A DNA stretch of 64,000 bases from assembly GCA_963758915.1 (NCBI GenBank), contig CAVWXH010000016.1, positions 128,001 through 192,000 on the forward strand, written 5' to 3'. The notes beneath the pieces were generated by a model. That model was not told the origin of the DNA, searched no databases, and saw only the letters and a list, made by a program, of their open reading frames with translations. The translations under genes were made by a program, and so were the position numbers. How positions within the stretch are numbered: position 1 is the first letter of the stretch; every line of letters begins with the position of its first letter. Of this stretch, positions 2,298 through 60,452 are shown piece after piece. This stretch comes from an uncultured Methanomicrobiales archaeon. GTDB lineage: Archaea > Halobacteriota > Methanomicrobia > Methanomicrobiales > Methanospirillaceae.

Positions 2298-2418
2298 TTA
2301 TTTTTGGTGATTCATCAATTGGAACCACCACAATACATTTTTATTCGTTAAATCAGGAGAGAATTGTATCCGGTTTAGGTAATCCTGTCATTTTGAGACC
2401 TTTCAACAGTCCAGGAAC

Positions 2419-2468
2419 TATCCCAATTGGGTGTTGCCGTAGCGGCGGGGGCAATGCCCCCAAGAGCG
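2419..2468 (+). repeat. Partial copy of intergenic module A (tandem-hairpin core)
   Basis: TATCCCAA..GTTGC-CGTA-GCGGC GGGGGC-AAT-GCCCCC AAGAGCG matches the 3' core of copies at about 3037, 23551, 44558, 52284 and 60266. Confidence 0.7.
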
Positions 2469-2649
2469 TCTTATTTTCCAATTCTAACTACATTTTTTTG
2501 AATTGGTTATGAGTCTGAAAAAATTGGGTGGCGTTTGTTGACGAATCACCTTATTTTTAATTTTTTGGTCTTGAATAAACGGGCCAGACCAGACCAGATT
2601 GACCCAAATCCTGGCATGACGTTTTTACAGGATTTTATATCAATGCGAC

Positions 2650-2757
2650 TTGGATGAAACACACATGAACGGGAAGTTCACACCCGGACGATTGAAAATG
2701 GTTCGTTAAAAATCTCCTTATATTGGAGTCTGTTCAGGCATTTCCAATAAAAATCCC
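2650..2757 (-). repeat. Intergenic module B, inverted copy
   Basis: 2655-2687 is the exact reverse complement of 52442-52474 (33 nt); similarity extends to about 2757. Confidence 0.9.
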
Positions 2758-2810
2758 ATCGACAATTTCATTGTTTATGCCCGACAGCAGGGCGGTCACA
2801 GGCGGTTAAT

Positions 2811-2877
2811 ATGAAAATCCCAACTGGCATTTTCATTTTGTATGCGTGTGACCTTTTGGCATCATGCCTGTTTTCAT
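2811..2877 (+). repeat. Intergenic module C (67 bp, ATGAAAA...TTTTCAT ends)
   Basis: Closely similar, same-length copy at 23707-23773. Confidence 0.9.
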
Positions 2878-2886
2878 GGGAAGCCC

Positions 2887-3143
2887 TGAATTTTAAAACG
2901 AGGAAGAAATATGTAGACAGGAGGGGGTTTCACCCTGAGTTTCACCCCCTCCCTGCCCCACCCCCGATAAGATATTCCCCGGGTAGGGTTAACCGGAAGA
3001 ATCCACCAAAATTTCAGAGATTTAATGACCATTCTCTATCCCAACCGGGATCACCAAAGCGGCGGGCCATGAGCCCAGGGTGCGTGGATAAATTTCGGAA
3101 TACTTCAAAATGGTAATATATTTTAGAGCATTTCAACAAAGCG
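2887..3143 (+). repeat. Intergenic module A, full copy
   Basis: GACAGGAGGGGGTTTCACCC...GATATTCCCCGGG...AATTTCAGAGATT...TATCCCAACC...AAAGCGGCGGGCCATGAGCCC...GGAATACTTCAAAA.GGTAATATA, shared with 23420-23660. Confidence 0.9.
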
Positions 3144-3444
3144 ATAAATGCCATAAACGGGCCACTCTATTTAAATACTGGCAATGCTGAAATAATTTAC
3201 AATGTGTGGTGAATGTTTTTTTGCCCGGGAGTGTTTTTATCACGACCAGCAGAGCACATACACGATGCATGAAATCCGGTAGTCCTGTTCAGGGACCCTG
3301 TTTTAATCAGATTATTCAACCAGCAGGTGCTTTGGAAAAATTATCAGCAATTCCTGGTTATTATCGTTATTATTTTAGTTTTAGGTATCTCCCATACTGA
3401 ACGGATCTGGTTTCTGACCGTTTTGGCAGGGGAGGAGGATTACT

Positions 3445-4233
3445 ATGAGAGGGAAAGATATTCGTCTTGAACGCATCATGAACCGTAACACAAGAAAGAC
3501 CATCATTGTCCCGATGGACCACGGTGTCACGAACGGGCCGATAGATGGCCTGATCGATCTTGGTAACGCAGTTGACCAGGTGGCGGAAGGGGGAGCCAAT
3601 GCCGTGCTGGGCCATATGGGCCTCGCATTATACGGCCACCGGAAAACAGGCCGTGATATCGGGCTCATCCTCCATCTCTCGGCAAGCACGTCGATAGGAC
3701 CTGACCCCAATGAAAAAGTACTGATCAACACAGTTCAGAACGCATTGAAAATGGGGGCCGACGCGGTGTCGATGCATGTGAACATCGGGGCCGATTCTGA
3801 GGCGGTAATGCTTTCAGACCTGGGAAAAATTGCGGTTGACTGTATGGAATGGGGAATGCCGCTCCTCGCAATGATGTACCCGAGGGGCAGGAAGATCATT
3901 GATGAACATGGTGTGGAGCAGGTGAAACTGGCTGCCCGTGTGGCTGCCGAACTCGGTGCAGATATCGTAAAAACCGTGTACACGGGTGACCCTGACAGTT
4001 TCCGTGAAGTGACCCGGGGTTGCCCGGTACCCGTGGTGGTAGCCGGAGGCCAGAAAACCGATGACCGCTCGACATTGGAATTAATTGAAGGAGCAATGGA
4101 AGGTGGTGCAGCCGGGCTCTCGATTGGAAGGAACGCGTTCCAGCACCGGACTCCGGCACGATTTGTACATGCGGCGGCAATGATCGTCCATGAACGAAAA
4201 AGTGTCGATGAAGCACTTCAATCGCTGGTATAA
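3445..4233 (+). CDS. aroA': 2-amino-3,7-dideoxy-D-threo-hept-6-ulosonate (ADH) synthase, archaeal class I aldolase family, paralog 1
   Basis: [23 protein letters not shown] (Schiff-base Lys), GRNAFQ motifs; first gene of the shikimate cluster. Confidence 0.88.
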
Positions 4234-4329
4234 GTCATCCGGAATACCGGATGTGATGGATTAACAAAATGGAAAAGACCAACAAAGGATTAGAACGTTA
4301 AACCGGAAGGAAGGGAGAGGAACAACATT

Positions 4330-5115
4330 ATGATTGGGAAGGACATCAGGATAGAAAGGATAATGGACAGGAATACGGGAAGGGGGGTCATTGTACCGAT
4401 GGACCACGGGTTTACCCTCGGCCAGATCGACGGTCTTCTTGACATGACTAAAATCATATCCGAGGTATCTGAAGGCGGGGCAAATGCAATCGTCCTGCAT
4501 AAAGGACTTGTTAAACGGGGTCACCGGAAAAGGGGTCGCGATATCGGGCTTATCGTCCACCTCTCGGCAAGCACCTCCTTAAACCCGGACCCGAATGACA
4601 AGGTCCTCGTCTGCACGGTTGAGGAGGCTGTTGCACTCGGAGCAGACGGGGTATCAATCCATATTAACCTTGGTGCACCGCAGGAATCGAGAATGATCGA
4701 GTCTGCCGGGAAGATCGTGAAAGACTGCAACCGCTGGGGTATGCCACTGCTCGTCATGATTTACCCAAGAGGCAAGGGTATCGATCCCAATTCGCCGCAG
4801 GCTATCGGGCACTGTGTCAGGGTAGCCGAGGAGCTCGGTGCAGACCTGATCAAGACAAATTACCCCGGAGATCCGGTTTCATTCAGAAAGATTACTGATG
4901 CCTGCTCAGTCCCGGTACTGGTTGCCGGTGGTGAGAAGATGGGGGACCTCGAGTCGCTCCGGATGATCCGTGAATCAGTCCATGCCGGGGGTGCCGGTGT
5001 TTGTGTCGGCCGTAATGCGTTCCAGAGGGTTTCTCCCGGTGCATTTGTGAAAGCACTCGGGCGCGTGGTCCATGATGACCTGGAGCCTGCCCTGGCATTG
5101 GAGCGGTCCGGATGA
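4330..5115 (+). CDS. ADH synthase / class I aldolase family, paralog 2
   Basis: Same motifs (IVPMDHG, MIYPRG, ELGADLIKT, GRNAFQ); stop overlaps the aroB' start. Confidence 0.88.
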   Translation: MIGKDIRIERIMDRNTGRGVIVPMDHGFTLGQIDGLLDMTKIISEVSEGGANAIVLHKGLVKRGHRKRGRDIGLIVHLSASTSLNPDPNDKVLVCTVEEAVALGADGVSIHINLGAPQESRMIESAGKIVKDCNRWGMPLLVMIYPRGKGIDPNSPQAIGHCVRVAEELGADLIKTNYPGDPVSFRKITDACSVPVLVAGGEKMGDLESLRMIRESVHAGGAGVCVGRNAFQRVSPGAFVKALGRVVHDDLEPALALERSG

Positions 5116-6098
5116 AGGAGTTCTGGGTGGACTGCAGGCCCTGGAACAAGGCGATTGCGACAACAGCAATTGAAAGCGGTGCAGACACCCTGGTGCTTGA
5201 CCAGGCCCGGTCAGGTCGTGAACTGGGGAGGGTCAGGACCGTTGCACCTGACGGTGACCTTGTCCCGGACAATGATGTATTCACCTGCAGGATAAGGGAT
5301 AAGGCAAGTGAAAACGAGGCTGTTGCACTGTCACGGAAGGGATACGTGATCGTTGAAACCGAAGACTGGAACGTGATCCCACTCGAGAACCTTGTTTCAT
5401 TGTCAGACCGCATCATTGCACTCGTGCATGACCTGGAATCAGCAGAACTGGCCCTGAATGTTCTTGAAAAGGGAGTCTGCGGGATTCTTCTGTCAACAAC
5501 GGAACCTGCAGTTGTCAGGAAGGTTGCGTCACTTCTCAAGTCAGGGTCCCAGCCGGCTGAAATTGTTCCCCTTACTATCACAGGGGTAACTCCCGCCGGA
5601 ATGGGTGACCGGGTCTGCGTGGATACCTGTTCACTATTGTCTGACAGTGAAGGGATGCTTATAGGTAATACTTCGGCCGGTGCATTCCTCGTCCACGCGG
5701 AAACGCTTGAAAACCCGTATGTTTCACCACGTCCATTCCGCGTAAATGCCGGGGCAGTTCATGCCTATGCAACAATGCCCGGGGGAAAAACTGCATACCT
5801 GTCAGATCTTAAGGCCGGTGACCGGGTATTGATTTCGGATTCCCAGGGAAGGACAAAAGAAGCAACAGTGGGCAGGGTAAAAATTGAACTACGCCCGCTT
5901 CTGCTCATCGAAGCCGAGTGCGGGGGGAGAAAGGTGAGTGCCATTCTCCAGAATGCCGAGACTATCCGCCTGGTCCGTAAAGACGGGAGTGCCTGCTCTG
6001 TTGCCTCCGTAAAGACCGGTGATATCGTGATGGGGACGGTAACAGAAAGCGGCCGCCATTTTGGCGTTGCCGTGAAAGAGCATATTATAGAAAAATGA
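5112..6098 (+). CDS. aroB': 3-dehydroquinate synthase II
   Basis: WNVIPLENL, GDRVCVDTC, RPFRVNAGAVHAY, GRVKIELRPL, LQNAETIRLV, GRHFG motifs. Confidence 0.95.
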   Translation: MKEFWVDCRPWNKAIATTAIESGADTLVLDQARSGRELGRVRTVAPDGDLVPDNDVFTCRIRDKASENEAVALSRKGYVIVETEDWNVIPLENLVSLSDRIIALVHDLESAELALNVLEKGVCGILLSTTEPAVVRKVASLLKSGSQPAEIVPLTITGVTPAGMGDRVCVDTCSLLSDSEGMLIGNTSAGAFLVHAETLENPYVSPRPFRVNAGAVHAYATMPGGKTAYLSDLKAGDRVLISDSQGRTKEATVGRVKIELRPLLLIEAECGGRKVSAILQNAETIRLVRKDGSACSVASVKTGDIVMGTVTESGRHFGVAVKEHIIEK

Positions 6099-6171
6099 AT
6101 ATGGAATGTACCATGGTAACGAATATGTACCAGTGCTGCCGTTCTGACATAGTATCCCGGGGCCCACCACG

Positions 6172-6996
6172 ATGAAGGTAGGTATCATAGGGGGTACCGG
6201 AAGGATGGGGAGCCTTTTTTCCGGGGTGTTTGAACGGGCTGGACACGAAGTGGCTTGTTCCGGGAGGAATACCCGGGTTAGTGCGATGGATCTGGTATCA
6301 GAATCCGATCTCATCATCGTTTCAGTTCCCATCCATAGCACGGCAGAAGTGATCCGGACTATTGCCCCTGATCTTACGGCATCGCAGGTTATTTGTGACC
6401 TGACCTCGCTCAAGGTATTCCCTGTCAGGGAGATGCTCTGTTCAAAGGCGGAAGTCATCGGGCTTCATCCGATGTTCGGTCCAACCGTCAGGACACTGGA
6501 ACAACAAACGATAATTGTCACCCCGGAGCGGTGCAGCAGGGAGAACCTTGGGAGGCTGACCGATATCTTTGAGACGGAGGGTGCAAGGATAACGATCACC
6601 ACCCCTGAGGCGCATGACAGGATGATGGCAGTTGTCCAGGGGCTGACTCATTTTATCACGCTCAGCATGGCTGAGACCATGCGGAGTATTGGTATTACGC
6701 CCGCTGATACTGAACCTTTTATGAGTCCGGTATACCAGATAGAGACCGGGCTGATGGGGCGGCTCCTTTCGCAGGACCCGGGCTTATACGCTGATATGCT
6801 CAGGATGAACCCCTATGTGCCGGCGGTACTCGAAGCATGTGAGCGTGCAGTCCGTGATGTTAAAAACACCGTATTATCAGGGGAGCGTAGCCCGTTTGAG
6901 CAGATTTTTTCCCGGAATAGCGAACATTTCGGTGATTACTGCAATACAGCGTCATCGCTTACAGATTCCCTGATTGAAGCGATGGTGAAACGATGA
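6172..6996 (+). CDS. tyrA: Prephenate dehydrogenase
   Basis: GIIGGTGRMG Rossmann fold, DLTSLK, HPMFGP, HDRMMAVVQGLTH. Confidence 0.93.
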   Translation: MKVGIIGGTGRMGSLFSGVFERAGHEVACSGRNTRVSAMDLVSESDLIIVSVPIHSTAEVIRTIAPDLTASQVICDLTSLKVFPVREMLCSKAEVIGLHPMFGPTVRTLEQQTIIVTPERCSRENLGRLTDIFETEGARITITTPEAHDRMMAVVQGLTHFITLSMAETMRSIGITPADTEPFMSPVYQIETGLMGRLLSQDPGLYADMLRMNPYVPAVLEACERAVRDVKNTVLSGERSPFEQIFSRNSEHFGDYCNTASSLTDSLIEAMVKR

Positions 6997-7787
6997 CCCT
7001 GTTCGCCCTTGGACCGGAAGGGACGTTCAGCCATGAACTTGCGTGCAAATTAGTCCCCCCCGGCGAGGTGCGGCTCCTTCCGGCCATAGGCACGGTCCTC
7101 TCAACTGTTGAGCAGGGCCTGGGTGACGGGGTGATACCTGTTGAGAATAGCGAAGCTGGCGGGGTCGGCCCTTCGCTTGACGGTCTTTTACGGTACAATG
7201 TTTTTGTAACGGCGGAAATGTATATCGAGATTCATCATTTTCTTGCATCATTCCTCCCTGTTGAAGAGGCTTCGGTTATCTATGCCCATCCACAGACCAG
7301 TGAGCAGTGCAGTGAATTCCTTGATAAACTGGGTATCGAGATAATCCCTACAAAAAGCAATGCGGCAAGTGCTATTGAACTGCTGGGTAACCGCGGGGGT
7401 GCGGCGGTTGTATCAAAGAAGATTTCAGAAGTCTACAATCTGCCGGTAATTATCTCCCATATTGAGAACAACCCTCATAATGTCACGAGGTTTTTCCGGG
7501 TGTCAGATCAGCCGTTGCAGGAACCAGGGCCGGAAAAATGTAGTATTGTTGTTGATCCGGCAACCGACCGCCCGGGTCTTCTCTATGAATTGCTCGCGGT
7601 GTTTGGGAGGCGCGGGATTAACCTCTGCAGGATCGAGTCCCGGCCATCAAAACGGGGTATGGGAAGTTACGTCTTTTTCATGGACATCACGACATCACCC
7701 GGGTACGAGGAGTCCCTTGCTGAGCTTGAAGAGCTGACGGTTATCAGGCGGCTTGGCTGTTATAAACGTCTTGAGGTGAACCTGTGA
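6993..7787 (+). CDS. pheA: Prephenate dehydratase with ACT domain
   Basis: LGPEGTFS, PVENSEAG, NVTRF, DRPGLL, INLCRIESRPSK. Confidence 0.95.
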   Translation: MTLFALGPEGTFSHELACKLVPPGEVRLLPAIGTVLSTVEQGLGDGVIPVENSEAGGVGPSLDGLLRYNVFVTAEMYIEIHHFLASFLPVEEASVIYAHPQTSEQCSEFLDKLGIEIIPTKSNAASAIELLGNRGGAAVVSKKISEVYNLPVIISHIENNPHNVTRFFRVSDQPLQEPGPEKCSIVVDPATDRPGLLYELLAVFGRRGINLCRIESRPSKRGMGSYVFFMDITTSPGYEESLAELEELTVIRRLGCYKRLEVNL

Positions 7788-9052: not shown

Positions 9053-9087
9053 TGTGGTACGATGTAGTGGAAATGGAGGATTAGTGT

Positions 9088-10476: not shown

Positions 10477-10537
10477 ATGGAAGTACCTGGTTTTTTCCCT
10501 GCTCCGGGCTGGGCATCCCTGGAAGGTGGTGTCACAA

Positions 10538-23360: not shown

Positions 23361-23419
23361 AATAACTACAATATTCATGCCTTTTTTTAACTCTGTTGTC
23401 ATCCATTGTCATGTCAAAA

Positions 23420-23660
23420 AAAAACCGGAATTATTTGGACAGGAGGGGGTTTCACCCGGGTTTTACCCCCTCACCCAATAAGATATTCCCCGGGGCAGGG
23501 TTAAACAGAAGAATTTATGAAAATTTCAGAGATTCAATGACCCTTTTTTTTATCCCAACCCGGGTCGACAAAGCGGCGGGCCATGAGCCCCGGGAGCGTT
23601 GTTAAATTTAGGAATACTTCAAAACGGTAATATAATTTTATAGCATTTCCCATGTAAATG
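23420..23660 (+). repeat. Intergenic module A, full copy
   Basis: Closest relative of 2887-3143; ends at junction AGCATTTCCCATGTAAATG. Confidence 0.9.
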
Positions 23661-23815
23661 ACAAAACGGACCCCAATATATGGGAATTCTGGACGAGGCA
23701 TTTAATGTGAAAATCCCCACTGGTATTTTCATTTTGTATGCATGTGGCCTTTTTGCATCATGCCTGTTTTCATAGCCCTGGTGTGGACGTCCCGTTCATG
23801 GGTGTTTCAACAATG
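23642..23815 (+). repeat. Module B interrupted by module C (23707-23773)
   Basis: Left part matches 52373-52435, right part matches 52436-52478, insert matches 2811-2877. Confidence 0.85.
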
Positions 23816-24006
23816 CGGGAAATCAGTAAAATCCGGTTAAAGGACTGATATAGAGCTGGAATGACTTAATTCACGCGAAGATAGGGAAAATTTGAACAAA
23901 GCCTTAATTTTCATGTTTCGCGGGATAAGGTCTGCTATTGACCGTCGTTTCGTTGTATATCTGATAAAAACATTCTGATGATCTGATTGCCATTAATAGC
24001 CGGTAT

Positions 24007-34076: not shown

Positions 34077-34198
34077 TTAAGCCAGTCCTGATCAGGCCCC
34101 CGATTTGTTGCATTCTTTGGCTGATCTGAAAAACTCCGGCAGAACAATATGAGAGGCCACCTTTTTATTGCTCATCTATGAGTAAAAGACTCATAGCA

Positions 34199-34384
34199 GT
34201 CTTTGTCGAAACCCTGTACGCTTATAAAAAGGAAGGGAAACTACGCAGACTGGAGGGAAGTTTCAACCCCTTATGGTCCAACCCCCCATACGATATCCTT
34301 TGGGCCGGGTTCAACTACAGTACTCCTGAAAATGTCAGAGATTAAAGGTCATTCCCTATCCAGAGAGCATTTCGACAGAACAGC
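34199..34384 (+). repeat. Internally deleted module A bounded by inverted junction sites
   Basis: Left CTTTGTCGAAACCCT, right AGCATTTCGACAGAAC; interior GAC.GGAGGG..GTTTCA, CGATATCC, TCAGAGATT, CTATCC. Confidence 0.75.
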
Positions 34385-44404: not shown

Positions 44405-44666
44405 GGCCCTGTTAAAAGCACTGCGTGTCAGGAAAAATGCAGGGAAAAGAAGTAGACATGAAGTGGTTTCACCCATAACCTGCCCCACCCCCGATAAGGT
44501 ATCCTTTGGGCAGTGTTTCCAGATGTTCATACATTTCCGGGTAAGGAGGGCACACGCTATCCAGGCAGGGGTCGCCATAGCGGCTGGGCGGAGCCCCGCG
44601 AACGCCAGTAAATCTTGGAATACCCCAGTCACCCAGAGAGATTTGAGAGCATGTCAAACCAATCCC
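44405..44666 (+). repeat. Intergenic module A, diverged copy
   Basis: GTAGACA..GGTTTCACCC, CCTGCCCCACCCCCGATAAG, CTATCC, GTCGC-CATA-GCGGC, GGGC-GGA-GCCC, TAAAT..GGAATAC, GAGAGCATGTCAA. Confidence 0.8.
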
Positions 44667-50251: not shown

Positions 50252-52112
50252 GTGATTCTTACGAAACTATCGCATCTTGTAATTCTTACCATTATCCTCG
50301 GGATGATGACAACCGGTTTTGTATCAGCTGAAATTCTGCCAGTTGAAAATATTGGTGGTGGAAAGGGATATTATGATATTTCGTCTAATCCGGAAGGTGG
50401 GACTGTCATCTTTGACGGGAAAAACAAGGGGATTACCCCCGTTACCGTTGAAGTGAGTACCTCAGGGACACCCGGGCATACGATCAGCATCTCCAAAGAA
50501 GGGTACCGGACATGGAGCTCGAATCAGCCCGGTAACCCATTCGAGGGCGAAACTATCAGTATTAATGCCGATCTTCTGTTTATTCCCGTTACTGAACCGA
50601 CCACCCTGCCCCCGACTACGATAATTGGCGGAGGAAAGGGGTATTATGATATTTCGTCTAACCCGGAAGGCGGGACTGTCATCTTTGACGGGAAAAACAA
50701 GGGGATTACCCCCGTTACCGTTGAAGTGAGTACCTCAGGGACACCCGGGCATACGATCAGCATCTCCAAAGAAGGGTACCGGACATGGAGCTCGAATCAG
50801 CCCGGTAACCCATTCGAGGGCGAAACCGTGCATGTTGATGCAGACCTCGTGTTTATACCGATAACTCTTCCTCCGACACCAATAGGGGGCGAGAAGGGGT
50901 ATTATTATGTTATGTCCAGCCCCAGTGGCGCAGCTGTCAGCCTTGACGGGACGAACCAGGGAACAACCCCCATAAATCTTGAGGTAAGTTCCACCGGCAC
51001 GCCTGGCCATACCATCGGTGTCGCGATGCCCGGTTACCAGTCCTGGAGCCAGTATTACCCCGGAAACCCACCGGCAGGATCGACGGTAACGGTTAATGCA
51101 GTGTTATCCCCCATGTACCAGAATGGTAATATCCAGGTGATGTCTTCGCCTTCGGGTGCATATGCGGTACTCGACAACGGTCAGAACTCGATGGTCACAC
51201 CCGGGACTTTTTCTTCGGTTTCCGCCGGGTGGCATAACGTAAGGGTAACAAAAACCGGGTATTACCCCTATTCACAAGATGTCCAGGTAAATGCGGGAGG
51301 CACAAGACTCGGTGTCAGCCAACCTTGTCCAGATCTCACAACAGGGGAGTATATCAATCAGCTCAACCCCGAACGGGGCGGGTATCTACGTCGACACAAT
51401 TTACCAGGGAGAAACGAACCAGATTGTCGGCAATCTTGCAACCGGATCCCATACCGTAACCCTCAAAAAAGCAGGGTACCAGACCTGGTCTTCGCAGTAT
51501 TCTGTATATTCCGGTCAGACTACGTATGTAACCGCCCAGCTCGCACCGGTCTTGAACCCGTCCACCGGGGACCTCCTTGTTCTTTCGTCCCCCTCGGGTG
51601 CGGCAGTATATGTTGATGGTGACTACCAGGGTTCCACGTCACCGGGAAGCCCCCTGGATGTTGTGTCACTGTCACAAGGGACTCACACCGTTGTATTGAA
51701 AAAATCCGGGTACCAGGACTATACGACCACGGCGAATATTCGTGCAGGACAAACGGTACAGGTATCGGCAACACTTGTACCCTCGGGGCAACCCGCCACC
51801 ACGGCGAGTGTTCAGATTACGTCAGACCCAAGCGGGGCAGATGTACTCATCAATAATGGTTACATGGGCATTACGCCATTAACCGCCCAGAACGTGCAAC
51901 CCGGTTCGTCCACTATCACAATTACGCTGGCGGGATACAATCCGTATTCAAGCACGCTGCAGATTACTTCCGGCCAGGCACTGCAGGTAAATGCGGCACT
52001 GTCACCCGTTGCAACACCCACGAAGAAAGCCCCGGTAAGTCCGTTCTTGGCGATCCTGGCAGTAGCAATTATTGGTACAATTGCGATGGTTAGGTTCAGA
52101 CCAAAAATGTGA
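50252..52112 (+). CDS. PEGA-repeat surface protein; one frameshift at about 51304
   Basis: Signal peptide, repeated SS.P.GA.V..DG...G.TP....G.H.....K.GY units, C-terminal TM + basic tail; removing one A gives 619 aa. Confidence 0.87.
50351..50826 (+). repeat. Internal tandem duplication of a PEGA unit (273-bp offset)
   Basis: 50399-50553 identical to 50672-50826 (155 bp). Confidence 0.93.
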
Positions 52113-52135
52113 TGAAACCGCGTACCTGATCAATC

Positions 52136-52482
52136 GGTTTTATTGAAACCTTCAGATGTATAAAAAAATGAGGGAATATGTTGGCCGGAGGGGTTTCATC
52201 CCTTCCCTGCCCTATTCAGATACTCCGGGCAGGGGTTTAATCAATTTTTTTACCAGTCCATTCCGTTCTGAAATATGTTCTCTCTCCCAACCGGGGTTGC
52301 CTGAGCGGCGTGGCGGTGCCCAGGGAGTATAACTAAATTTTGGAATTACTTACCCTGCATAATAGATTTAAGAGGGTTTCCCATGAAAGTGCCCGAACGG
52401 TCAGCAATATGAAGAAATTTTGAACGTGGCATTTTCATAGCCCGGGTGTGAACTTCCCGTTCATGTGTGTTTCAACAAAACC
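52136..52482 (+). repeat. Module A followed by uninterrupted module B
   Basis: GGTTTTATTGAAACC left site; GGAGGGGTTTCATCCCTTCC; CCCTGCCC/GGGCAGGG; shared junction GGGTTTCCCATGAAAG; B ends TGTTTCAACAAAACC. Confidence 0.88.
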
Positions 52483-52530
52483 TTTCATTCTTCTTTTTCC
52501 TGGCTAAAAGACCCGATTAAAAGAAAAATC

Positions 52531-52661
52531 GGCAATATTGAAACCCTTCGGTGTTATAAAAAAAGAGGGAAATATGAAAACGGGACCGATACTCCCGGGC
52601 AGGGGTTTCCCGAAGACTCATTAAATTAAGAGTATAGGGGGATAGTCTCTATCCCAACCGG
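52531..52661 (+). repeat. Second, truncated module A copy
   Basis: TATTGAAACC.TTC..TGT.ATAAAAAAA.GAGGGAA.TATG, GATACTCC.GGGCAGGGGTTT and TCTCTATCCCAACCGG repeat 52141-52294. Confidence 0.8.
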
Positions 52662-52773
52662 AACCGGGACCGGTCAGGCAGAAATGTCTGTCCCCGCGTT
52701 CCTTAATCCTGCCTTTCAAATAATATACTATATATCAGATTAACCGAAATTGGGAATATGCTGTGAAATACCC

Positions 52774-55248
52774 ATGAAACTCCAGGAAAAAACTCTTCTT
52801 GTTTTTATCGTCCTGCTCATATCGGTCCTTGTAGTCATCAGCATATTTTTTTCCACCATACTCCTTGCAAGTTACAGCGGCCTTGAAGAGCAGTATATAG
52901 AAAAAGACCTTGGCCAGGCGGTCAGCAAACTCGACGACGAACTGTTTACCATGTCGTCTATCGTGTCTGACTGGGGGCCCTGGGATGATACGGTTGATTT
53001 TGTAAACGGAAATGATCCGGAGTACCTTAAATCAAATCTCCAGCCATATGGCTTTGATAATCTCAACCTGAACCTTATTGTTCTTACCAATACCAGGGGG
53101 GAGGTCCTCTTTTCGGGTGCATACGATCTCGGGGACAAGGTGATGGTCCCGGTTCCGGCTTTCTTTTCCGGAAAACTGGAACTCAACAATCCCCTGATGA
53201 ATATGTCGGACCCCCACCAGATAACAACGGGAATTCTGATGCTGCCTGATGATCCGATGCTTGTTGTGTCGCAACCCATTGTACATTCCGATTTTTCCGG
53301 CCCCCCCCAGGGAGTCGTGATCATGGGGCGATACCTCAACAAGGCAGAAATATCGAGGCTGGGAGAACTCACACGACCCAGTCTTACCTTCACCCGTACC
53401 GATGACCCTGCCTTATCACCAGAGCTGGTTATGCATATCCGGGAGGACAGCGGGTCGGCACCGGGAATTATTGCGCAGCTGAACAGGGATGAGGTCGCAG
53501 GATATGCTCTGATTAAGGATATTTACGGGAATGACGCGCTAGTTCTCCAGATCACTGAAGCCCGTGATATCTACCACCAGGGATTAACTACCACGATGGA
53601 GGTTTTCATGATCATAATCCTGAGCGGGGTATTCCTGGGACTTGTGGTAATTATTCTGCTGGACCGGTTGCTGCTGGAACGTATGAACTCACTGGCTGAA
53701 CAGGTCTATAAGATAGGTAAATCCGGAAGTACCACGGAGCACGTGGAGATCGGTGGGGATGACGAACTCTCCGGGCTTGCAGTTGAAATAAACCGTATGC
53801 TGGATACGATCGAACTGACGCAGGCAAAGGTCCAGGCCAGTGAGGCACGGTTTCGGGGACTTGCGGAGAACCTGCCGCTGGTCATATTCGAGATGGACAC
53901 AACTGGTCGTCTTCAGTATGTTAATAAGGCCGGTGTAGAAATATTCGGGGTTACCGAAGACAAGATCGCACAGGGTATTAATATCCGGTATTATTTATCC
54001 CCTGAAAATATCGGGATGATGGAGCGGGGGCTTACAGCAGTGCTGTCCGGCACCCGGTCTCCCGGAGAGACCTATACCTTAACACGGTCCGATGGCAGCC
54101 TGATGAAGGCCATTGTATATACATCACTCATTTACCGGGAAGAGAAGGTAACCGGTTTCAGGGGAATAGTTATTGATATATCAGGACGGCTTGAGCTGGA
54201 AGAGGCGCTAAAGGACAGCGAGGAAAAATACCGGACGCTTGCCGAAAATTCAGCAGATATCATATTCTCGCTTGATATAACGGGAACATTCACTTATATC
54301 TCCCCGCAGGTATCCCGGTACGGTTACACTCCACCTGAAATTGTAGGTAAAGGGATCCAAATGTTCATACACCCGGATGACCATGCAAAGGTCCTCGATA
54401 ATTACCACCGGGAGATGAAGGACGGCTCTTCCATCGCATCAACATTCAGGATCATAGACAAGCCGGGCGCCCTCCACTGGGTGGAGGAGAACAGCAATAT
54501 AAAATTTGATGACCAGGGAAAGCCGATGGGAATGGTTGGAATCCTCCGGGATGTGACCGACCGGATGCGGGCAGAAGATGCGATAGACCTTGCCAACAAA
54601 AAATTAAACCTGATGAATAATATTACGCGTCATGATATCCTCAATACCATCAGCGGGTTATTAGGGTGCGTGGACATGGCGAACGCTACCTCATCTCCCG
54701 AAGAAAAGACCCGGCTGCTCAATGATATCAGGGACCTCACCCGCATCATTCAGCGCCAGATTGAATTTACCAGGGAATACCAGGAAGTCGGGGTCCACCT
54801 GCCGTTATGGCAGAATGTTCAAAAGGTGATCGACAAGGTTTTGCAGAATTTCGAAAAAACCGACCTTCATTTTTCGATCAATTCCGAGGATATGGAGATC
54901 TATGCGGATCCCCTGCTGGAGAAGGTGTTCTACAACCTGGTTGATAATGCAAAAAGGTACGGGGAGACTATCACGACCATAAGGATATCCACCCAGGCTT
55001 CCGGGAAAGGTACCCTGTTGATTTTCGCGGACGATGGCATAGGAATACCCGTTGATCAAAAAATCCGTATTTTCGAGCGGGGCGTGGGAAGGAATACGGG
55101 TATGGGATTGTTCCTCACCCGGGAGATACTCTCCATTACGGGCATTACGATTAAGGAAAACGGTGTTCCTGGGAAAGGGGCACGCTTCGAAATCTTGATC
55201 CCATGGGGTACATTCAGGTCTGTCAGTGACAGATTGCCACATGGTTAA
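52774..55248 (+). CDS. Membrane sensor histidine kinase (CHASE4-HAMP-PAS-PAS-HATPase)
   Basis: TM, DWGPWDDT (CHASE4), DELSGLAVEINRML (HAMP), two PAS domains, NITRHDILN H-box, NLVDNA, DDGIGI, GMGLFL. Confidence 0.92.
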   Translation: MKLQEKTLLVFIVLLISVLVVISIFFSTILLASYSGLEEQYIEKDLGQAVSKLDDELFTMSSIVSDWGPWDDTVDFVNGNDPEYLKSNLQPYGFDNLNLNLIVLTNTRGEVLFSGAYDLGDKVMVPVPAFFSGKLELNNPLMNMSDPHQITTGILMLPDDPMLVVSQPIVHSDFSGPPQGVVIMGRYLNKAEISRLGELTRPSLTFTRTDDPALSPELVMHIREDSGSAPGIIAQLNRDEVAGYALIKDIYGNDALVLQITEARDIYHQGLTTTMEVFMIIILSGVFLGLVVIILLDRLLLERMNSLAEQVYKIGKSGSTTEHVEIGGDDELSGLAVEINRMLDTIELTQAKVQASEARFRGLAENLPLVIFEMDTTGRLQYVNKAGVEIFGVTEDKIAQGINIRYYLSPENIGMMERGLTAVLSGTRSPGETYTLTRSDGSLMKAIVYTSLIYREEKVTGFRGIVIDISGRLELEEALKDSEEKYRTLAENSADIIFSLDITGTFTYISPQVSRYGYTPPEIVGKGIQMFIHPDDHAKVLDNYHREMKDGSSIASTFRIIDKPGALHWVEENSNIKFDDQGKPMGMVGILRDVTDRMRAEDAIDLANKKLNLMNNITRHDILNTISGLLGCVDMANATSSPEEKTRLLNDIRDLTRIIQRQIEFTREYQEVGVHLPLWQNVQKVIDKVLQNFEKTDLHFSINSEDMEIYADPLLEKVFYNLVDNAKRYGETITTIRISTQASGKGTLLIFADDGIGIPVDQKIRIFERGVGRNTGMGLFLTREILSITGITIKENGVPGKGARFEILIPWGTFRSVSDRLPHG

Positions 55249-55293
55249 ACATATGAGATCACCAAACAACATCATGTAGTATCATCCGGTGAA

Positions 55294-55665
55294 ATGATGG
55301 TTGAAAAATCGATACTTCTTGTTGAAGATGACGATATTATCGCCCGGGTTGCTGACTGGCGGTTGAAAAACCTTGGATATTCTGTATGCGGGCGTGCCAC
55401 AACGGGTGCAGAGGCGATGGAACTGGTGGGGAAGCATAAACCCGACATTGTCCTGATGGACATCAACCTGAAAGGCGACATCGATGGGATTGAGACTGCA
55501 GGGATGATCAAGCAGGGTTTTAACATCCCCGTGATATACGTGACTTCACATTCGGATGGTATCACGCTTGAAAGGGCGAAAGCAACGAACCCTGACGGAT
55601 TTATTGTTAAACCTTTCGATGATACCGACCTTCGCGTGGCAATTGAACTTGCACTGAAAAAATAA
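55294..55665 (+). CDS. Single-domain response regulator
   Basis: ILLVEDD, PDIVLMDINL, DGIE, VTSH, KPF. Confidence 0.93.
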   Translation: MMVEKSILLVEDDDIIARVADWRLKNLGYSVCGRATTGAEAMELVGKHKPDIVLMDINLKGDIDGIETAGMIKQGFNIPVIYVTSHSDGITLERAKATNPDGFIVKPFDDTDLRVAIELALKK

Positions 55666-55808
55666 TGGATCGAAAACACGTTTCCGGCAAGATAACACAC
55701 AATAGCTTCCGACAAGCGCTATTGGAGAAAAGGATGGTGCCCCGGCCGGGATTTAACCTGATTAACTGATTTTCCTGGTCCGGTTATAAAACCTGCGCTT
55801 TTCTTTCT

Positions 55809-55900
55809 GTTTCAACAAAGTGTGCTGTGAGCCTTTGTCTCACAGATGAACATGAAAAGGTTGCCTTTCAGATGTTTTAACGGAGTTTTTCATACCAACC
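55809..55900 (+). repeat. Intergenic module E
   Basis: TCAACAAAG.GTGCT.TGAGC.TTTG.CTCA.AGATGAACATGAA shared with 60357-60452; ends TTTCATA. Confidence 0.85.
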
Positions 55901-55906
55901 AGTATG

Positions 55907-56098
55907 TTACTTAGTTTTTCCCCACATCTCACGAATTAAAAATACCAGAAGGATAACTGAAACCCCGAGCACTGTAAGGGTGATAAACAGACTGATCCAT
56001 GACATAATTCCCTGTCGATAAATAAATGCCGACCAGAGAAACGCTACAAGTGATATAAGGGAATAAAAAATCAACCCCCTATTGTCGATTACGGCCAT
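55907..56098 (-). CDS. Small two-TM membrane protein
   Basis: MAVIDNRGLIFYSLISLVAFLWS...LIREMWGKTK. Confidence 0.65.
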   Translation of the reverse strand: MAVIDNRGLIFYSLISLVAFLWSAFIYRQGIMSWISLFITLTVLGVSVILLVFLIREMWGKTK

Positions 56099-56280
56099 AG
56101 GAGATTGTTGTATCAACCAGGGTTATTATATGTTTCCTCCCGAAAAAACCAGGATTCCATTGAAAATAATGTACATACAGAAAATAAAATAGTACGGTGG
56201 CAAACCATAGTGTCCCGACCTGAATTTGTAGAAACTCAAGATATCAATTTTTTAAAAAAAATCCAAGCTTGAGTGATGGA

Positions 56281-56355
56281 TGCTGCTATGGGGATTCGAA
56301 CCCCAGTCGCGAGCGTGAGAGGCTCGCATGATTGGCCGGACTACACTATAGCAGC
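56281..56355 (-). tRNA. tRNA-Glu(CTC)
   Basis: GCTGCTA/TAGCAGC acceptor, CGAGC-CTCTCAC-GCTCG anticodon arm, GGTTCGAATCC. Confidence 0.96.
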
Positions 56356-56533
56356 AATGTATGAATAACTGCCCAGATACATGGGTAGTGTTGTTACTTA
56401 AATATGTCTGTTATTCGTCGTTTCTCGCACACCCGGCCAGTTTTCCTGGTTAAATTCTCCTAAATGTTTCAGGTCCTCCTGCAATTCCTATACCCACAAC
56501 TATATGTGAATGATCCGGCCAATGATAGAAAGA

Positions 56534-57646
56534 ATGAGTGGCCTCGAAGATCAGATCAAGGAACTGGAGGATGAGCTCCAGAAGACACCTTATAACAAGG
56601 CCACATCCAAGCATATCGGCCGGGTAAAGGCCAAGATAGCAAGATTACGGGACGACGCCGTCAACCGGGCGATGAAGTCCGGGGGTGGCGGTGAAGGGTA
56701 CTCGGTTAAAAAATCCGGGGATGCAACTGTTGTCCTTGTCGGATTCCCTTCAACCGGTAAGAGTACCCTTCTTAACCAGCTCACCGGTGCGGAGAGCGCA
56801 GTCGGTGCCTATGAATTTACCACGCTTACTGTCGTCCCGGGTGCGATGGAATACAAGGGAGCAAAAATCCAGATCCTTGATATCCCGGGGCTTATCGCCG
56901 GGGCTGCGATGGGAAAAGGCCGTGGAAAGGAAGTAATCGGCGTTGTACGAAGTGCAGATATGATAGTGGTCCTTGTTGATGTCTTTAACCAGGGTCATGT
57001 CGACGTACTTATGAAAGAGCTCTATGATGCCGGTATCCGGATAAATAAGCCCAGGCCCGATATCACGATCAAGAAGACCTCACACGGGGGTATCCGGGTC
57101 CACAAGGTCGGTACCCTGGAACTTAATATTGAAGAAATCCGGGCTATCCTGAGCGAGAGTAAAATCATGAACGCGGATATCCTCATCAGGGGAGGTGCCA
57201 CGCAGGAAGACCTGATTGATGAGGTAATGGGTAGTCGTGTATATGTTCCCGCATTTATTGCCGTCAATAAAGTTGACCTGATAGATAACGAACAGGCAGG
57301 TGAGATAGAGGTTACTCTTGAGGAACGTTTCTCGATGCCACCGGTCATGATCTCCGCCCACACCGGCTATCACATGGAAGAATTGAAAGAGGAGATCTAC
57401 CAGAAACTCGGGTTTATGAGGCTCTACCTCCGTCCCCAGGGTGAGGAGGCCGATCTCGAAGAACCCCTTATCATCCGGTCAGGCAGCACGGTTGAAGCCG
57501 TATGCAGGAAACTGCACCGGGACTTTGTCGACCGTTTCAGGTATGCCCGCGTCTGGGGTGATCACGTAAAGCACCCCGGGCAACGGATTGGGCTTCCCTA
57601 TAAACTCCATGACGGGGATATCCTCTCGATAATCATCGAGCATTAA
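56534..57646 (+). CDS. DRG/OBG-family GTPase with TGS domain
   Basis: YNKATSKHIG, GFPSTGKS, YEFTTL, DIPGL, NKVD, TGS C-terminus. Confidence 0.95.
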   Translation: MSGLEDQIKELEDELQKTPYNKATSKHIGRVKAKIARLRDDAVNRAMKSGGGGEGYSVKKSGDATVVLVGFPSTGKSTLLNQLTGAESAVGAYEFTTLTVVPGAMEYKGAKIQILDIPGLIAGAAMGKGRGKEVIGVVRSADMIVVLVDVFNQGHVDVLMKELYDAGIRINKPRPDITIKKTSHGGIRVHKVGTLELNIEEIRAILSESKIMNADILIRGGATQEDLIDEVMGSRVYVPAFIAVNKVDLIDNEQAGEIEVTLEERFSMPPVMISAHTGYHMEELKEEIYQKLGFMRLYLRPQGEEADLEEPLIIRSGSTVEAVCRKLHRDFVDRFRYARVWGDHVKHPGQRIGLPYKLHDGDILSIIIEH

Positions 57647-57736
57647 TAAAAAAATGTTCCGATAAACAATATGCCGGTTCCTGGTCTTTTTTCCGAATAG
57701 AACAGGCCGGAAACCAATCCGGGCAAGTAACTGTTT

Positions 57737-58858
57737 TCAGCATTCCCCTTTTACCGCTTCAAGAAGCCTGGGCAGCGGTGCGGTTGTTTTTACACCGGTG
57801 CCAAGATAATGACACCTGGTAGCGGGAAATCCCATATCATGTATTCTTCCGAGCAGTTCATCCATCGGGGGTGGCGAGCGTCGCTCACGTTTCGCAAGCT
57901 GGTGGTAGTCGTAAAAACCTGCCGTTGGAAGTTCATTCCTGCAGAGTGAAAGCAGTACAGCCAGTTCCCGTGAAGTGGCAAGTTTAAGAAGTGGAAGCTT
58001 TTCAATCATGGCATCGAGGTGCGAATCTGACTGGATCCCCCCCAGCCATAACGGGCCGACCGGAATGAGGCGGGCACCGCAATATTCGCATACCTCATTC
58101 TGTGGCAGCATTCCATGTTGTTCAGTGCGGGAAGGGCATTTTTGGCACTGCAGGATGTACCCGATCGATGAAAGGGTCCGTTCAGCCGCGGGTGCACCTC
58201 TCCTGACCTGCAGGTGCAGCCGGACAAAATGCTCATGGGCAAAGCAGAACTGCGGGACAAGTCCCATATCATATTTCAATGCCTCCCGAACGACGAATCC
58301 AAGGAGTATGCGAAGGCCGGTCTCGCTATGGTACTCGTTGTTCAATGGCTGCGCAAAATATCGCCGCATACCCGCTTTTTTATGAGCGCCGCAGAGTGGG
58401 GCGGTATCAGTCGCCGTGACCATGAGGAAACGGCGTGCACTCCGGATCGCAGCATCAATAAATGGTGCCGGAGTCCCAAATGGGTCAAGGTCGACGGCAT
58501 CAAACCTCTGGCCTGACAGGAGCACATTCACATCGCTTTTTGTCACGGTGACGTTTTCAAGGCCTGAATGGAGAACATTTGTCCGGATCAAGTCAACCGC
58601 ACGTGTATCACGGTCATTGATAGTGACATTAATTCCGCATTCCTGCGCAACCCGGAGCCCCCTGACACCGGTTGCACCCATGGTATCGATATAATCCTCA
58701 GGGTGTACTACCTGGAGCAGGAGTACTGTGGCATCGCGGTTGAGCTCCATGCGCCGGTTATAAAAAACAGGTGCGGTGCCGGGAGGGAAGGCGGAATCTT
58801 CGTCCTGCCCGGGGATAAAAAAACATGTACTCCCCTCTACGGCCTCTATTAATTGCAT
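57737..58858 (-). CDS. trm1: tRNA (guanine-26-N2)-dimethyltransferase
   Basis: VFYNRRMELNRD, ATGVRGLR, DLDPFGTP, TATD, GLRILLG, GPLWLG. Confidence 0.95.
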   Translation of the reverse strand: MQLIEAVEGSTCFFIPGQDEDSAFPPGTAPVFYNRRMELNRDATVLLLQVVHPEDYIDTMGATGVRGLRVAQECGINVTINDRDTRAVDLIRTNVLHSGLENVTVTKSDVNVLLSGQRFDAVDLDPFGTPAPFIDAAIRSARRFLMVTATDTAPLCGAHKKAGMRRYFAQPLNNEYHSETGLRILLGFVVREALKYDMGLVPQFCFAHEHFVRLHLQVRRGAPAAERTLSSIGYILQCQKCPSRTEQHGMLPQNEVCEYCGARLIPVGPLWLGGIQSDSHLDAMIEKLPLLKLATSRELAVLLSLCRNELPTAGFYDYHQLAKRERRSPPPMDELLGRIHDMGFPATRCHYLGTGVKTTAPLPRLLEAVKGEC

Positions 58859-58920
58859 AATCCCTAGTATCATGAGTTTCGTTAACCTTATACCTATCCC
58901 TTGTCAATTCATATAGGCGA

Positions 58921-58995
58921 GGGCGTGTGGCTTAGCCCGGACATAGCGTCAGCCTCCTAAGCTGAATGCCGGGGGTTCAAATCCCCCCACGCCCG
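58921..58995 (+). tRNA. tRNA-Arg(CCT)
   Basis: GGGCGTG/CACGCCC acceptor, TCAGC-CTCCTAA-GCTGA, GGTTCAAATCC, T-run downstream. Confidence 0.96.
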
Positions 58996-59054
58996 TTTTT
59001 CATAAAAAATTTACTTCATCACCTTAATACGGCAGTCCGGAGAAGATCTTCACT

Positions 59055-59900
59055 ATGACAATTATGGGTTACTGGCGAATTATCAGGCCGGTAAATTCTA
59101 TTGTTGCTGGTCTTGCCGCTGCGCTTGCCTACCTGATTGCAACCGGGACCCTCATCCCGTCAGTAATCTTCCTGATTGTCATTGTAATCCTGATTACCGG
59201 AGCCGGAAACACCATTAACGATTATTTTGACCTCCCGATTGACATGGTCAACCGCCCTGACAGGCCTCTCCCATCAGGGACCGTTACCACTTCAGGTGCC
59301 CTCATTTTTGCCGGTATCCTGTTCACCGGGGGGATCTTTGTCAGTTTTTTTACGAACCCCTACTGTGCTTTTTTTGCAGTCATTAATTCGCTCCTGCTTA
59401 TCGCATATGCGAAAAAACTAAAAAGTACACCGCTTATCGGCAACCTGTCAGTCGCGTATCTCGCCGGGAGTATTTTTCTCTTTGGTGGTGCGTTCGCGGG
59501 TATATCGGGTCTTATAAACAACATGGTTATCGCGTTGATTACGATCTTTGCAATGCTTTCCAGGGAGCTCCTGAAGGATGCGGAAGATCTGCCCGGAGAT
59601 ATCGGAGCGGGAGCAAAAACATTTCCTGTCCTGTACGGTATACGCTTTACTGCCTGTCTCTCCATTATTTTTACGATTCTCGCGGTAGCAGTCAGTTTTC
59701 TTCCCTATACCCGGTGGGGTGCCTGGTACCTTGCGGGTATCATTCCTGTGGATGTCATCATCCTTTATAGTGCATGGAGGGCCTCAGGGTGCAGGGATCC
59801 TGAATGTGTAAAAGAAAGCAGTGCAACGATTTACCTGAAATACGGTATGTTTGCCTCGCTTATCGTGTTTACCCTGGCTGCACTTTTATTACAGGGATAA
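59055..59900 (+). CDS. Digeranylgeranylglyceryl phosphate synthase (UbiA family)
   Basis: IIRPVNS, GNTINDYFD..ID.VNRPDRPLPSG, RELLKDAEDLPGD..GAKT. Confidence 0.92.
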   Translation: MTIMGYWRIIRPVNSIVAGLAAALAYLIATGTLIPSVIFLIVIVILITGAGNTINDYFDLPIDMVNRPDRPLPSGTVTTSGALIFAGILFTGGIFVSFFTNPYCAFFAVINSLLLIAYAKKLKSTPLIGNLSVAYLAGSIFLFGGAFAGISGLINNMVIALITIFAMLSRELLKDAEDLPGDIGAGAKTFPVLYGIRFTACLSIIFTILAVAVSFLPYTRWGAWYLAGIIPVDVIILYSAWRASGCRDPECVKESSATIYLKYGMFASLIVFTLAALLLQG

Positions 59901-60149
59901 AAAAAAGTAAAATGTTTTGGAATGTTTAGCACGGTCCCGGCTCTCTCAAGGTCGTGATAGTTACGTGACATTACCGGTGAAAACTGGCAGTTCAGGTCAC
60001 GATACGGGATTCACCTGAATTTTCTGTCCCCTCGTATTTCCCGCACGACAGGATGATTATTCGTGATTGATTGGGAAGATACCCGGTATGCGGGAAAACA
60101 TGGCAATTAAGGAAAAAATTGCACTGCTGACATCACGTATTATTTTTTA

Positions 60150-60452
60150 AAAATAAGCGGAGGCCATTGACCGGAGGGGGTTTCAGCCTGTCCCGTCCCA
60201 CACCCGGGAAAGAGATTTTCCTGGCAGGGCTCATCCTAATTTTCAGTGATTAATGAACCGTCGCTATCCGGGCAGGACCGCCAAAGCGGCTGGGTGAAGA
60301 CCCGGGAGCGTGCGTGACATATCTGGCCTTCTGAAAATCAATACCGTGGCGTAGAAAGGATATCAACAAAGCGTGCTATGAGCATTTGGCTCAGAGATGA
60401 ACATGAATAAGGTGGCATTCTCAGAATGTTCAGCCGGAATTTCATATCAGCC
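60150..60452 (+). repeat. Module A followed by module E
   Basis: GACCGGAGGGGGTTTCA, TTTTCAGTGATTAATGA, TCGCTATCC, CCGC-CAAA-GCGG, GGGT-GAAG-ACCC GGGAGCG; junction GGATATCAACAAAGCG; then E. Confidence 0.83.

Follow-up and report, generated by a model that had tools for sequence, protein, structure and literature searches.

The stretch of DNA considered here, 64,000 nucleotides from an uncultured archaeon of the Methanomicrobiales (the window, hereafter; G000:C16:128001-192000), carries in seven of its long intergenic gaps a family of repeats assembled in differing orders from a small set of modules. These repeats belong to two layers of mobile DNA, both spread over the whole genome. I propose that the first layer, module A, is a MITE (miniature inverted-repeat transposable element) of the IS5 family, and that the second, made up of modules B, D, C2, and C1, consists of miniature derivatives of IS110-family elements (minis) that were inserted, guided by RNA, into the ends of A and into each other. 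That this account is right seems to me very probable.

The repetition itself is not in doubt. Comparison of the window with itself by BLAST gives matches among the seven gaps with E values from 1e-4 to 1e-55. Profile hidden Markov models of the modules (A, 244 bp; B, 89 bp; C, 127 bp; D, 97 bp, lengths that take in parts of the terminal repeat) match 188, 77, 46, and 57 times, respectively, within the archaeal assembly from which the window comes (G000; 2.38 Mb, 94% complete, 18 contigs). The matches fall into 205 clusters, and the same four profiles find nothing in the reversed genome. Several of the matches to C overlap those to B, because the two have arms in common. An earlier sequence-only reading of the window had already recognized a dispersed family, and its order of modules at the seven loci was about right; what it called E is called D here. 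The orders are constrained: D is always outermost, one end of B always faces outward, and C lies within B or D. No further high-copy repeated module adjoins the clusters in G000. As to distribution, A+B DNA taken from locus 5 has matches in 12 of 12 genomes belonging to the genus, in 2 of 12 from the rest of the family, and in 0 of 16 that represent other families of the order.

Two layers of insertion

The arrays are bounded by inverted terminal repeats of 13-17 bp, GGCTYTGTWGAAA. Both ends can be recognized in 87 of the 205 clusters, and 19 of these 87 are flanked by an exact 8-bp duplication (33 if up to one mismatch is allowed), where shuffled flanks lead one to expect 0.26 (or 1.1). Of the lengths from 2 to 11, 8 bp alone stands out, and none of the rest exceeds 5. 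Module A has no gene and a high copy number, and its ends recur on elements that do have a transposase gene. One in G000 (L013, at G000:C6:46019-47110) has A-type ends, an exact 8-bp duplication, and a score of 203 bits against NF033579, for which the cut-off is 140. A second (L014, at C3:83226-84487) has exactly A's 17-bp ends and scores 112 bits, below that cut-off. The 17-bp ends are identical also to those of an IS5 element in G005 (L026), and G001 and G005 have relatives whose ends are intact and which are flanked by 8-bp duplications. Beyond the terminal repeats, the interior of A matches none of the IS5 loci examined. Judged by its ends and its duplications, module A is a MITE of the IS5 family, one that an IS5-family DDE transposase would mobilize in trans.

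The most conserved part of A across the genus is a G+C-rich core hairpin. The same hairpin is found in a second MITE family, which has other terminal repeats and 8-bp duplications of its own. The copy in the window, at locus 1, had been taken for a core piece of A; its 8-bp duplication is exact, and the other copy, at G000:C9:223116-223322, is 92% identical to it.

Modules B, C, and D interrupt the edge of A rather than being joined onto it. Of 75 copies of B, 68 have their left, outward end within the terminal repeat, as 46 of 52 copies of D have their left, inner end, against a background of 1.5%. The module D of the sequence-only reading dissolved at this point into the left end of B plus terminal repeat, and module C, which it had treated as a single unit, separated into two, C1 and C2; the end of C2 is followed by a TTTTCAT arm in 23 of 24 cases. 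Each kind has its own insertion point. For B it is the AAA of the terminal repeat, at either end of A; for D, a position three bases from the tip of the repeat; for C2, the right arm of B, the internal arm of B, or the internal arm of D; and for C1, the right-end junction of C2. The host need not be A. B also interrupts the end of another B, and one full-length IS5 element of G005 (L031) has it in a repeat that is unbroken in the sister element (L022); D is found on an IS5 element of G000, inside its duplication. One pair of A copies is alike at all but 2 of about 245 bases; a single clean B is the further difference between them. An inversion of A acting as a switch was considered; it is not needed, because either end is open to B, and in L002 both ends are filled at once.

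G000 holds about 150 minis of the four kinds. They are 64-90 bp in length, without genes, and each keeps a right end together with a left end that reaches to an internal ATGAAAA arm and measures about 45 bp. The near-full copies (about 60 of B and about 50 of D) have one interior and one length common to each kind. If the two ends of a unit are joined, 11 bases separate an inverted TCAT and ATGA, a reading of the sequence that holds for all units.

Comparison with a related genome, G006 (about 89% identical to G000, compared in 24 segments), reveals differences in both layers. Some orthologous sites are filled in one genome and empty in the other: G006 has no module at 8 of 38 mappable G000 loci, and G000 has none at 14 of 45 loci of G006. 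Read by eye, the G006 site that matches G000:C9:211807 retains a single copy of the duplicated 8-mer, GGTTTTCC; another 'empty' call in G006 was in fact a deletion between element ends. The second layer changes on its own as well. There are at least four sites, read by eye, at which the two genomes have the same A insertion with different contents of B, C, and D. At C15:63289, G006 has D and B additionally at one end; at C16:54434, B is at opposite ends in the two genomes and D is in G006 only; at C16:78095, D is again in G006 only. The fourth is locus 4 of the window, where G006 and G010 have B and C2 in the left terminal repeat and where the site in G009 is empty. A tree of 92 near-full A copies tells much the same story. 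The 24 copies with B at the right end require 18 changes (shuffled mean 21.5), at least 9 of them on well-supported branches, and 9 changes, at least 5 on such branches, are needed for the 11 copies that have B on the left; the B labels were assigned automatically, and a few are wrong. Within G000, a block that is 98-99% identical at C12:22233-23258 and C13:3450-4604 includes one D+B+A array, with C in the C13 copy only. This is either a duplication or a strain variant, again differing by one unit.

It might be supposed that such modules are regulatory cassettes (promoters, terminators, small RNAs) domesticated by the host and shuffled for function, or else cassettes like those of integrons or pdif modules, moved by a tyrosine recombinase. 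Their intergenic position, their hairpins, the core of A conserved over the genus and common to the second MITE, and four tyrosine-recombinase matches in the genome could all be cited in favor. I regard the idea as extremely improbable. The modules are missing from orthologous sites at the frequencies just given; they match no Rfam family, a search of the window at the gathering threshold, as the sequence-only reading had advised, yielding only RNase P and three tRNAs; and no module match is found at L017-L019, around tyrosine recombinases. (The A copies at a further tyrosine-recombinase locus, L016, belong to a neighboring IS5 locus, and three matches to Rfam on window positions 2290-3200 at a relaxed threshold are far below cut-off and were taken as chance.) Neither a tyrosine recombinase nor TnpA/RAYT, both of which the sequence-only reading had advised looking for, is implicated; G000 has no match to PF01797 (Y1_Tnp). 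The statement that no transposase or recombinase lies in the window itself stands for the four families searched genome-wide (DDE_Tnp_1, Phage_integrase, Transposase_20, and Y1_Tnp), none of which has a match there.

Full-length IS110 elements and their predicted guide RNAs

The spacing of 11 bases is that of the donor of IS621 (7+2+2, in the available text of PMC11208160), and it was this that prompted a search for IS110-family genes. Of 12 other genomes of the genus, 6 have PF02371 matches, and at 6 of the 11 loci there are module matches beside the gene. Recombinase genes lie inside the arrays, between the arms of modules: of C1 in L044, of C2 in L047 and L053, of D in L046, and of B in L064 and L247. 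The left ends of these full-length elements agree with the mini consensus at 39 of 43 positions for B (L247), 38 of 41 for D (L046), 40 of 44 for C1 (L044), and 41 of 52 for C2 (L047). Their six longest open reading frames score 236-283 bits against NF033542 (cut-off 140). The recombinases, 410-425 amino acids in length, combine PF01548 with PF02371, and in the five that were aligned D12, E59, D95, D98, and S294 are invariant, which is to say DEDD plus a serine. At one locus, L064, two full-length elements are nested, with a C2 type sitting in the right arm of a B type. IS110-family elements of the B, C1, and D types are still present in G010 and G006. From their ends, then, B, C1, C2, and D are to all appearances internally deleted derivatives of the IS110 family. 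An earlier thought, that D was flanking DNA captured along with a cryptic end, was dropped once its full-length parent and its repeated GC core had been found.

Scans of public genomes and metagenomes gave 159 clade loci, some of them the same element twice, and 47 have a module match near the gene at a loose threshold; relatives of the clade occur in the records of named methanogens. One named Methanoregula genome has about 16 near-identical full-length copies of one member (L078-L096, L105, L120), apparently a recent expansion and a good candidate for an active element. Four C1-type elements (L057, L059, L137, L198) are preceded by at least one mini unit, of their own kind in L137 and L198, which suggests that C1-type arrays grow by insertion at the right end of the previous unit. 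On a metagenome contig, L139 has a D-like left end together with a guide and flanks that correspond to an IS5-type repeat at the B site, likely a natural case of re-aiming. Two more IS110 types of the clade (L241, G007:C37; L239, G010:C161) were noted, one at the same AAA site of an IS5 repeat beside a D and one in an A-tract near the left end of A; possible decayed minis of the second such type lie at G000:C2:77607, C16:384054, and C3:78795.

Upstream of the recombinase gene is a region of 137 nt, present in 155 loci. The fold predicted from 64 distinct copies has a closing stem and two loop-bearing arms, with compensatory change in 15 of 22 pairs and a covariation of 0.40, compared with 0.17 when shuffled and 0.06-0.09 when the partners are slid. 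If this is a guide RNA, then its loops should vary in concert with the DNA at the insertion site, and they do. A parser could read 63 of 68 distinct RNAs (some mis-parses were left in), and these were compared with 5000 shuffles. The left target guide matches its flank at a mean of 4.16 of 6 positions, 2.68 when shuffled (n=56); the right target guide at 4.06 of 6, 2.76 when shuffled (n=51); the right end of the element matches the RNA at 2.69 of 3, 1.11 when shuffled (n=51); and a site internal to the left end at 6.06 of 8, 4.27 when shuffled (n=63). In each case 0 of the 5000 shuffles did as well. Since kin are not independent, the RNAs were also set in disjoint nearest-neighbor pairs and each asked whether it fits its own DNA or that of its partner. 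Own exceeded swapped by 18 to 3 for the left target, 20 to 2 for the right target, 9 to 0 for the right end, and 13 to 1 for the internal site.

The guides say where each kind is aimed. The two B-type RNAs contain TTGTAGAAA or TTGTTGAAA, representing the IS5 repeat; a complement to the inner right end of A; and, for the right end of B, ATGGGAAA. D-type RNAs contain TACAGAGC or AACAAAGC, each equal to the element's own flank. C2-type RNAs contain CATGAAAA, C2 being aimed at the ATGAAAA arms of B and D, and C1-type RNAs contain the right-end junction of C2. The 42 sites of G000 filled by B agree with the left-target guide at 7.7 of 9 positions, and the right-target guide fits the A ends that B has filled better than those it has not (p 0.0008; right ends alone, p 0.007).

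The donor side is another matter. About 30 bp inside the left end, next to the internal ATGAAAA arm, is a site that the donor loop matches with its 5' side; the bases that adjoin the core are not what it matches. If donor pairing does take place about 30 bp from the crossover, that would explain why every mini keeps the whole of a 45-bp left end. The match is in part with stem sequence and could be a relic or a feature of RNA folding, hence it is best taken as a lead.

A proposed mechanism and the case against it

The following scheme would produce the arrays. An IS5-family DDE transposase would recognize the terminal repeats, move A, and leave 8-bp duplications. A full-length IS110-family copy would supply recombinase and bridge RNA in trans, by which a mini may be excised as a circle, and the circle would insert at the site spelled by the target loop of the RNA: B at the AAA of the repeat, D three bases from the tip of the same repeat, C2 in the ATGAAAA arms of B and D, and C1 at the right-end junction of C2. 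Because A has the repeat at each of its ends and every insertion makes new targets, fixed rules lead to many orders. In this respect the sequence-only reading judged well, in viewing the modules as non-autonomous units probably moved in trans and combined in many orders, and not as decayed pieces of a single insertion sequence.

The IS5 transposase would also move composites whole. Identity between A+B composites that lie at unrelated sites can be as high as 90-93%, and 22 of 102 ends free of D start with C (T 5, A 2), the base that would be left if the transposase were to cut at the inner end of a repeat filled by D. These two observations are the reason for thinking that whole-unit movement probably occurs. 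They could be carried further, to a view in which there is only one family of modular IS5 MITEs, its modules joined on a few occasions through microhomology deletion or the capture of flanks and ever since copied whole by the IS5 transposase, the link with IS110 being merely historical. The 8-bp duplications that composites retain would fit such a view, as would the clustering of B-free copies on the A tree, which is above chance. It is too much to expect, however, that a few chance joinings would give base-exact insertion in hosts as unrelated as both ends of A, a full-length IS5 element, and other minis, or gain and loss at a single orthologous insertion and so many changes on the tree, or full-length IS110 elements with matching ends and guides. 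As the sole cause, the view is already contradicted and quite improbable; it survives as a contributing process only.

It could also be that the minis are true IS110 derivatives that never moved as minis, each having been formed in place by the insertion of a full-length element and a subsequent internal deletion. Locus 6 offers an example of what this would look like. The D found there in G006 is about 315 bp in length and keeps the guide RNA without a recombinase gene, a deletion intermediate, and the D of G000 is short. (The 280-bp interior of the G006 copy was considered as a remnant of a transposase; it has no notable frame and is the guide RNA.) To this may be added that no mini circle has been observed, as described below. 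Independent deletions, however, would not be expected to give about 60 near-full copies of B and 50 of D that agree within each kind in interior and length. The view could be rescued if the minis spread solely inside moving A composites, and the tree and the orthologous sites argue against that. I consider it very improbable.

Insertion of mobile IS110 minis into the ends of an IS5 MITE thus remains the account I favor, and several observations weigh against it. The first is the lack of a helper: G000 has no IS110 gene or RNA by Pfam, tblastn, nhmmer, or covariance-model searches. With an assembly 94% complete and in 18 contigs, this does not establish absence from the organism; the helper was lost or is unassembled. 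The absence of a helper from the assembly, together with the many decayed copies, means that the system may be dormant in G000. Second, the parents are imperfect. No full-length B found so far has both ends in an intact repeat, L247 being cut by the end of a contig and L064 having a degenerate left flank, and the sole D with a gene has it in two separate reading frames and lacks the right end. The IS5 elements of G000 are no better. The gene of L013 appears to be frameshifted near its start relative to a homologue, and that of L014 is broken in two by an inversion inside the element, for which its own end and that of a neighboring A were used, leaving an inverted 8-bp duplication. The latter is what one transposase acting on the ends of both IS5 and A would do. 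Third, no joint readable as the circle of a mini unit was found in three sets of contigs, where joints between copies of the repeat are not separable from other loci. Finally, the guides do not account for everything. Fourteen copies of B lie in the left end of A, where the right-target guide matches at about 3 of 6 positions; flanks of ends filled by D and of ends free of it match the right-target guide of D equally (2.98 and 2.93 of 6, p 0.38), with no enrichment; and a canonical right-donor guide beside the core was not found by eye.

Window loci and related systems

The features of the seven loci are collected in the table. The orthologous sites in G006 have no more than a 97-bp remnant of A at locus 2 and no module at locus 3. 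The latter had been read, correctly, as an A with a deletion, and its D had been missed.

Table. Repeat features of the window, in window coordinates
Feature	Position	Strand	Remarks
Locus 1, second MITE	2306..2550	.	13-bp terminal inverted repeats starting GGTGATTC; exact 8-bp duplication TTATTTTT
Locus 1, composite: A with B in left terminal repeat, C1 and C2 in right end of B	2647..3143	+	8-bp flanks with 1 mismatch
Locus 1, mini-B (putative IS110-family, non-autonomous)	2660..2879 (2660-2743 and 2874-2879)	+	Split by C1/C2; full-length relatives L247, L064
Locus 1, mini-C1, 64 bp	2744..2807	-	At right-end junction of C2; full-length relative L044
Locus 1, mini-C2, 66 bp	2808..2873	-	In right-end arm of B; full-length relative L047
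Locus 1, body of A	2880..3134	+	Profile match
Locus 2: A with degenerate left end, B (23650-23804, minus strand) in right terminal repeat	23389..23817	+	Duplication gone
Locus 2, mini-C2	23704..23769	+	Inside internal ATGAAAA arm of B
Locus 3: A with internal deletion, mini-D (about 34123-34199) in left terminal repeat	34119..34382	+	
Locus 4: A alone	44405..44665	+	35 bp downstream of a tRNA
Locus 5: A with mini-B (52381-52469, minus strand) in right terminal repeat	52136..52482	+	
Locus 5, second A, truncated	52531..52662	+	
Locus 6: decayed left end of B, terminal repeat, mini-D (55822-55896)	55765..55900	-	
Locus 7: degenerate A with mini-D (60373-60448) in right terminal repeat	60120..60452	+	

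Apart from the repeats, the window includes archaeal RNase P and lipid genes, and four stretches may be mentioned. At 52192-55118, a PAS histidine kinase gene (52750-55248) and the repeats of locus 5 are absent from the syntenic place in G006, the gap beginning within A. PEGA-domain repeats span two overlapping frames at 50252-52112 (50252-51616 and 51291-52112), a frameshifted or split gene for a surface protein. Two tandem paralogues, 66% identical as DNA, lie at 3445-5115, the first of them ADH synthase. A 200-bp intergenic stretch at 55935-56137, unrelated to the modules, has a second copy, 80% identical, at G000:C16:228967-229172.

There are precedents for parts of this system. Partridge and Hall are said to have described, in 2003, that IS4321 and IS5075 (IS1111 group, IS110 family) insert into the terminal inverted repeat of Tn21-family transposons. 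The present elements are like these in that a member of the IS110 family is aimed at the terminal repeat of another transposon. They are unlike them in that the host is an archaeal IS5 element and its MITE, entered at two distinct points of the repeat, in that the inserts are mostly gene-less minis and further members target the first ones, and in having their RNA upstream and a recombinase of 410-425 amino acids.

More recent reports, which I cite from the portions of their texts that are available, come closer in other respects. IS110 elements are excised in the form of circles and inserted through RNA-guided recombination, their RNA acts in trans, and minis that consist of ends only can be moved (PMC11187229, PMC13626964, PMC12288879). 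Pseudomonas putida has, along with ISPpu9, a non-autonomous unit with IS110-type ends, MITEPpu9/ssr9, which forms circles through the IS110 transposase and builds modular arrays (PMC12288879). There, eight copies of one mini use the REP target of the parent; here, about 150 minis of four kinds have chained guides, and the target is the end of another element. With IS621 (PMC11208160, PMC13626964) and the seekRNA elements ISEc11 and ISEc21 (PMC11187229) the present elements have in common a DEDD recombinase with a catalytic serine, an upstream non-coding RNA with target and donor loops, a short core repeated at both ends, and 11 bases between the inverted arms of the joined ends. They differ from IS621 in the core, which is AA(A), or GC for D, where that of IS621 is CT, and in the donor loop, with its match to the internal site. 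The target loop has the complement of the top strand first, which is what has been reported for IS1111 and the reverse of IS621, despite the upstream position of the RNA.

The elements do not fit the IS1111 group, whose members are described as having RNA downstream of the gene, subterminal repeats of 11-13 bp at 7 and 3 bp from the ends, and an enzyme of 330-350 amino acids (PMC11187229). Here, besides the upstream RNA and the longer enzyme, there is a 4-bp arm near the left end and a 7-bp arm about 40 bp inside. The position of the RNA and the length of the protein fit the IS110 group (IS621/ISEc21 type), with the guide order reversed and no core-adjacent guide seen by eye. The sequence-only reading had looked for kinship elsewhere, among bacterial interspersed mosaic elements (BIME/REP), pdif modules, and integron-like arrays, and there it was mistaken: A is evidently an IS5 MITE, and the combinatorial part appears to be the site-specific insertion of IS110 minis. 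Against BIME/REP-RAYT and palindrome-associated elements (PATE) of IS200/IS605 stand the lack of PF01797 and the presence of 8-bp duplications. Against integrons and pdif stand junctions explained by IS110 ends and guides and the tyrosine-recombinase loci L017-L019 without modules, attC and dif models lying outside the searches made. Module A has what IS5-family MITEs have (common terminal repeats, an 8-bp duplication, no gene, high copy number), and is unlike the usual ones in that its ends are riddled with targeted insertions of a second level.

No published description was found of a multi-level cascade in archaea or of a donor-loop match to an internal site of the left end; ISfinder/TnPedia, subscription journals, and the supplements of PMC11208160 and of bioRxiv 10.64898/2026.10.21.760802 (bridge-RNA catalogues) may hold members of the clade. 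The available parts of a survey of archaeal insertion sequences (PMC13343696) and of one bridge-RNA survey do not describe the cascade. What goes beyond the precedents is that the host is an archaeal IS5 element, that the minis number about 150 and are of four kinds, that the chain of targeting rises three tiers up from the host, that an upstream RNA has its guides in the order of IS1111, and that the donor loop matches an internal site. One might go on to see here a distinct archaeal branch of bridge recombinases, a chain of hyperparasites whose guides have been re-aimed repeatedly (from the IS5 repeat to B and D, thence to C2, and thence to C1) and whose recognition of the donor, some 30 bp from the crossover, is of an undescribed sort. 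I offer that tentatively, as a reading that falls a little short of an even chance.

If the proposal is correct, an unexplained mosaic repeat becomes a system that can be read and tested. The minis, at 64-90 bp, would define the minimal ends that a bridge recombinase needs, and the reprogramming of guides can be followed in the 68 distinct RNAs, taken together with their natural flanks. The clade occurs in methanogens, which are short of good tools for site-specific integration, and it differs from IS621 in core, in guide order, and possibly in donor recognition. There is also a warning in this: a composite repeat in a prokaryote need not consist of domesticated cassettes and can instead be a stack of targeted insertions. 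RNA-guided elements would here be using the ends of other elements as safe landing sites, over several tiers, and the nested arrays would be a natural record of guide RNAs re-aimed at fellow parasites.

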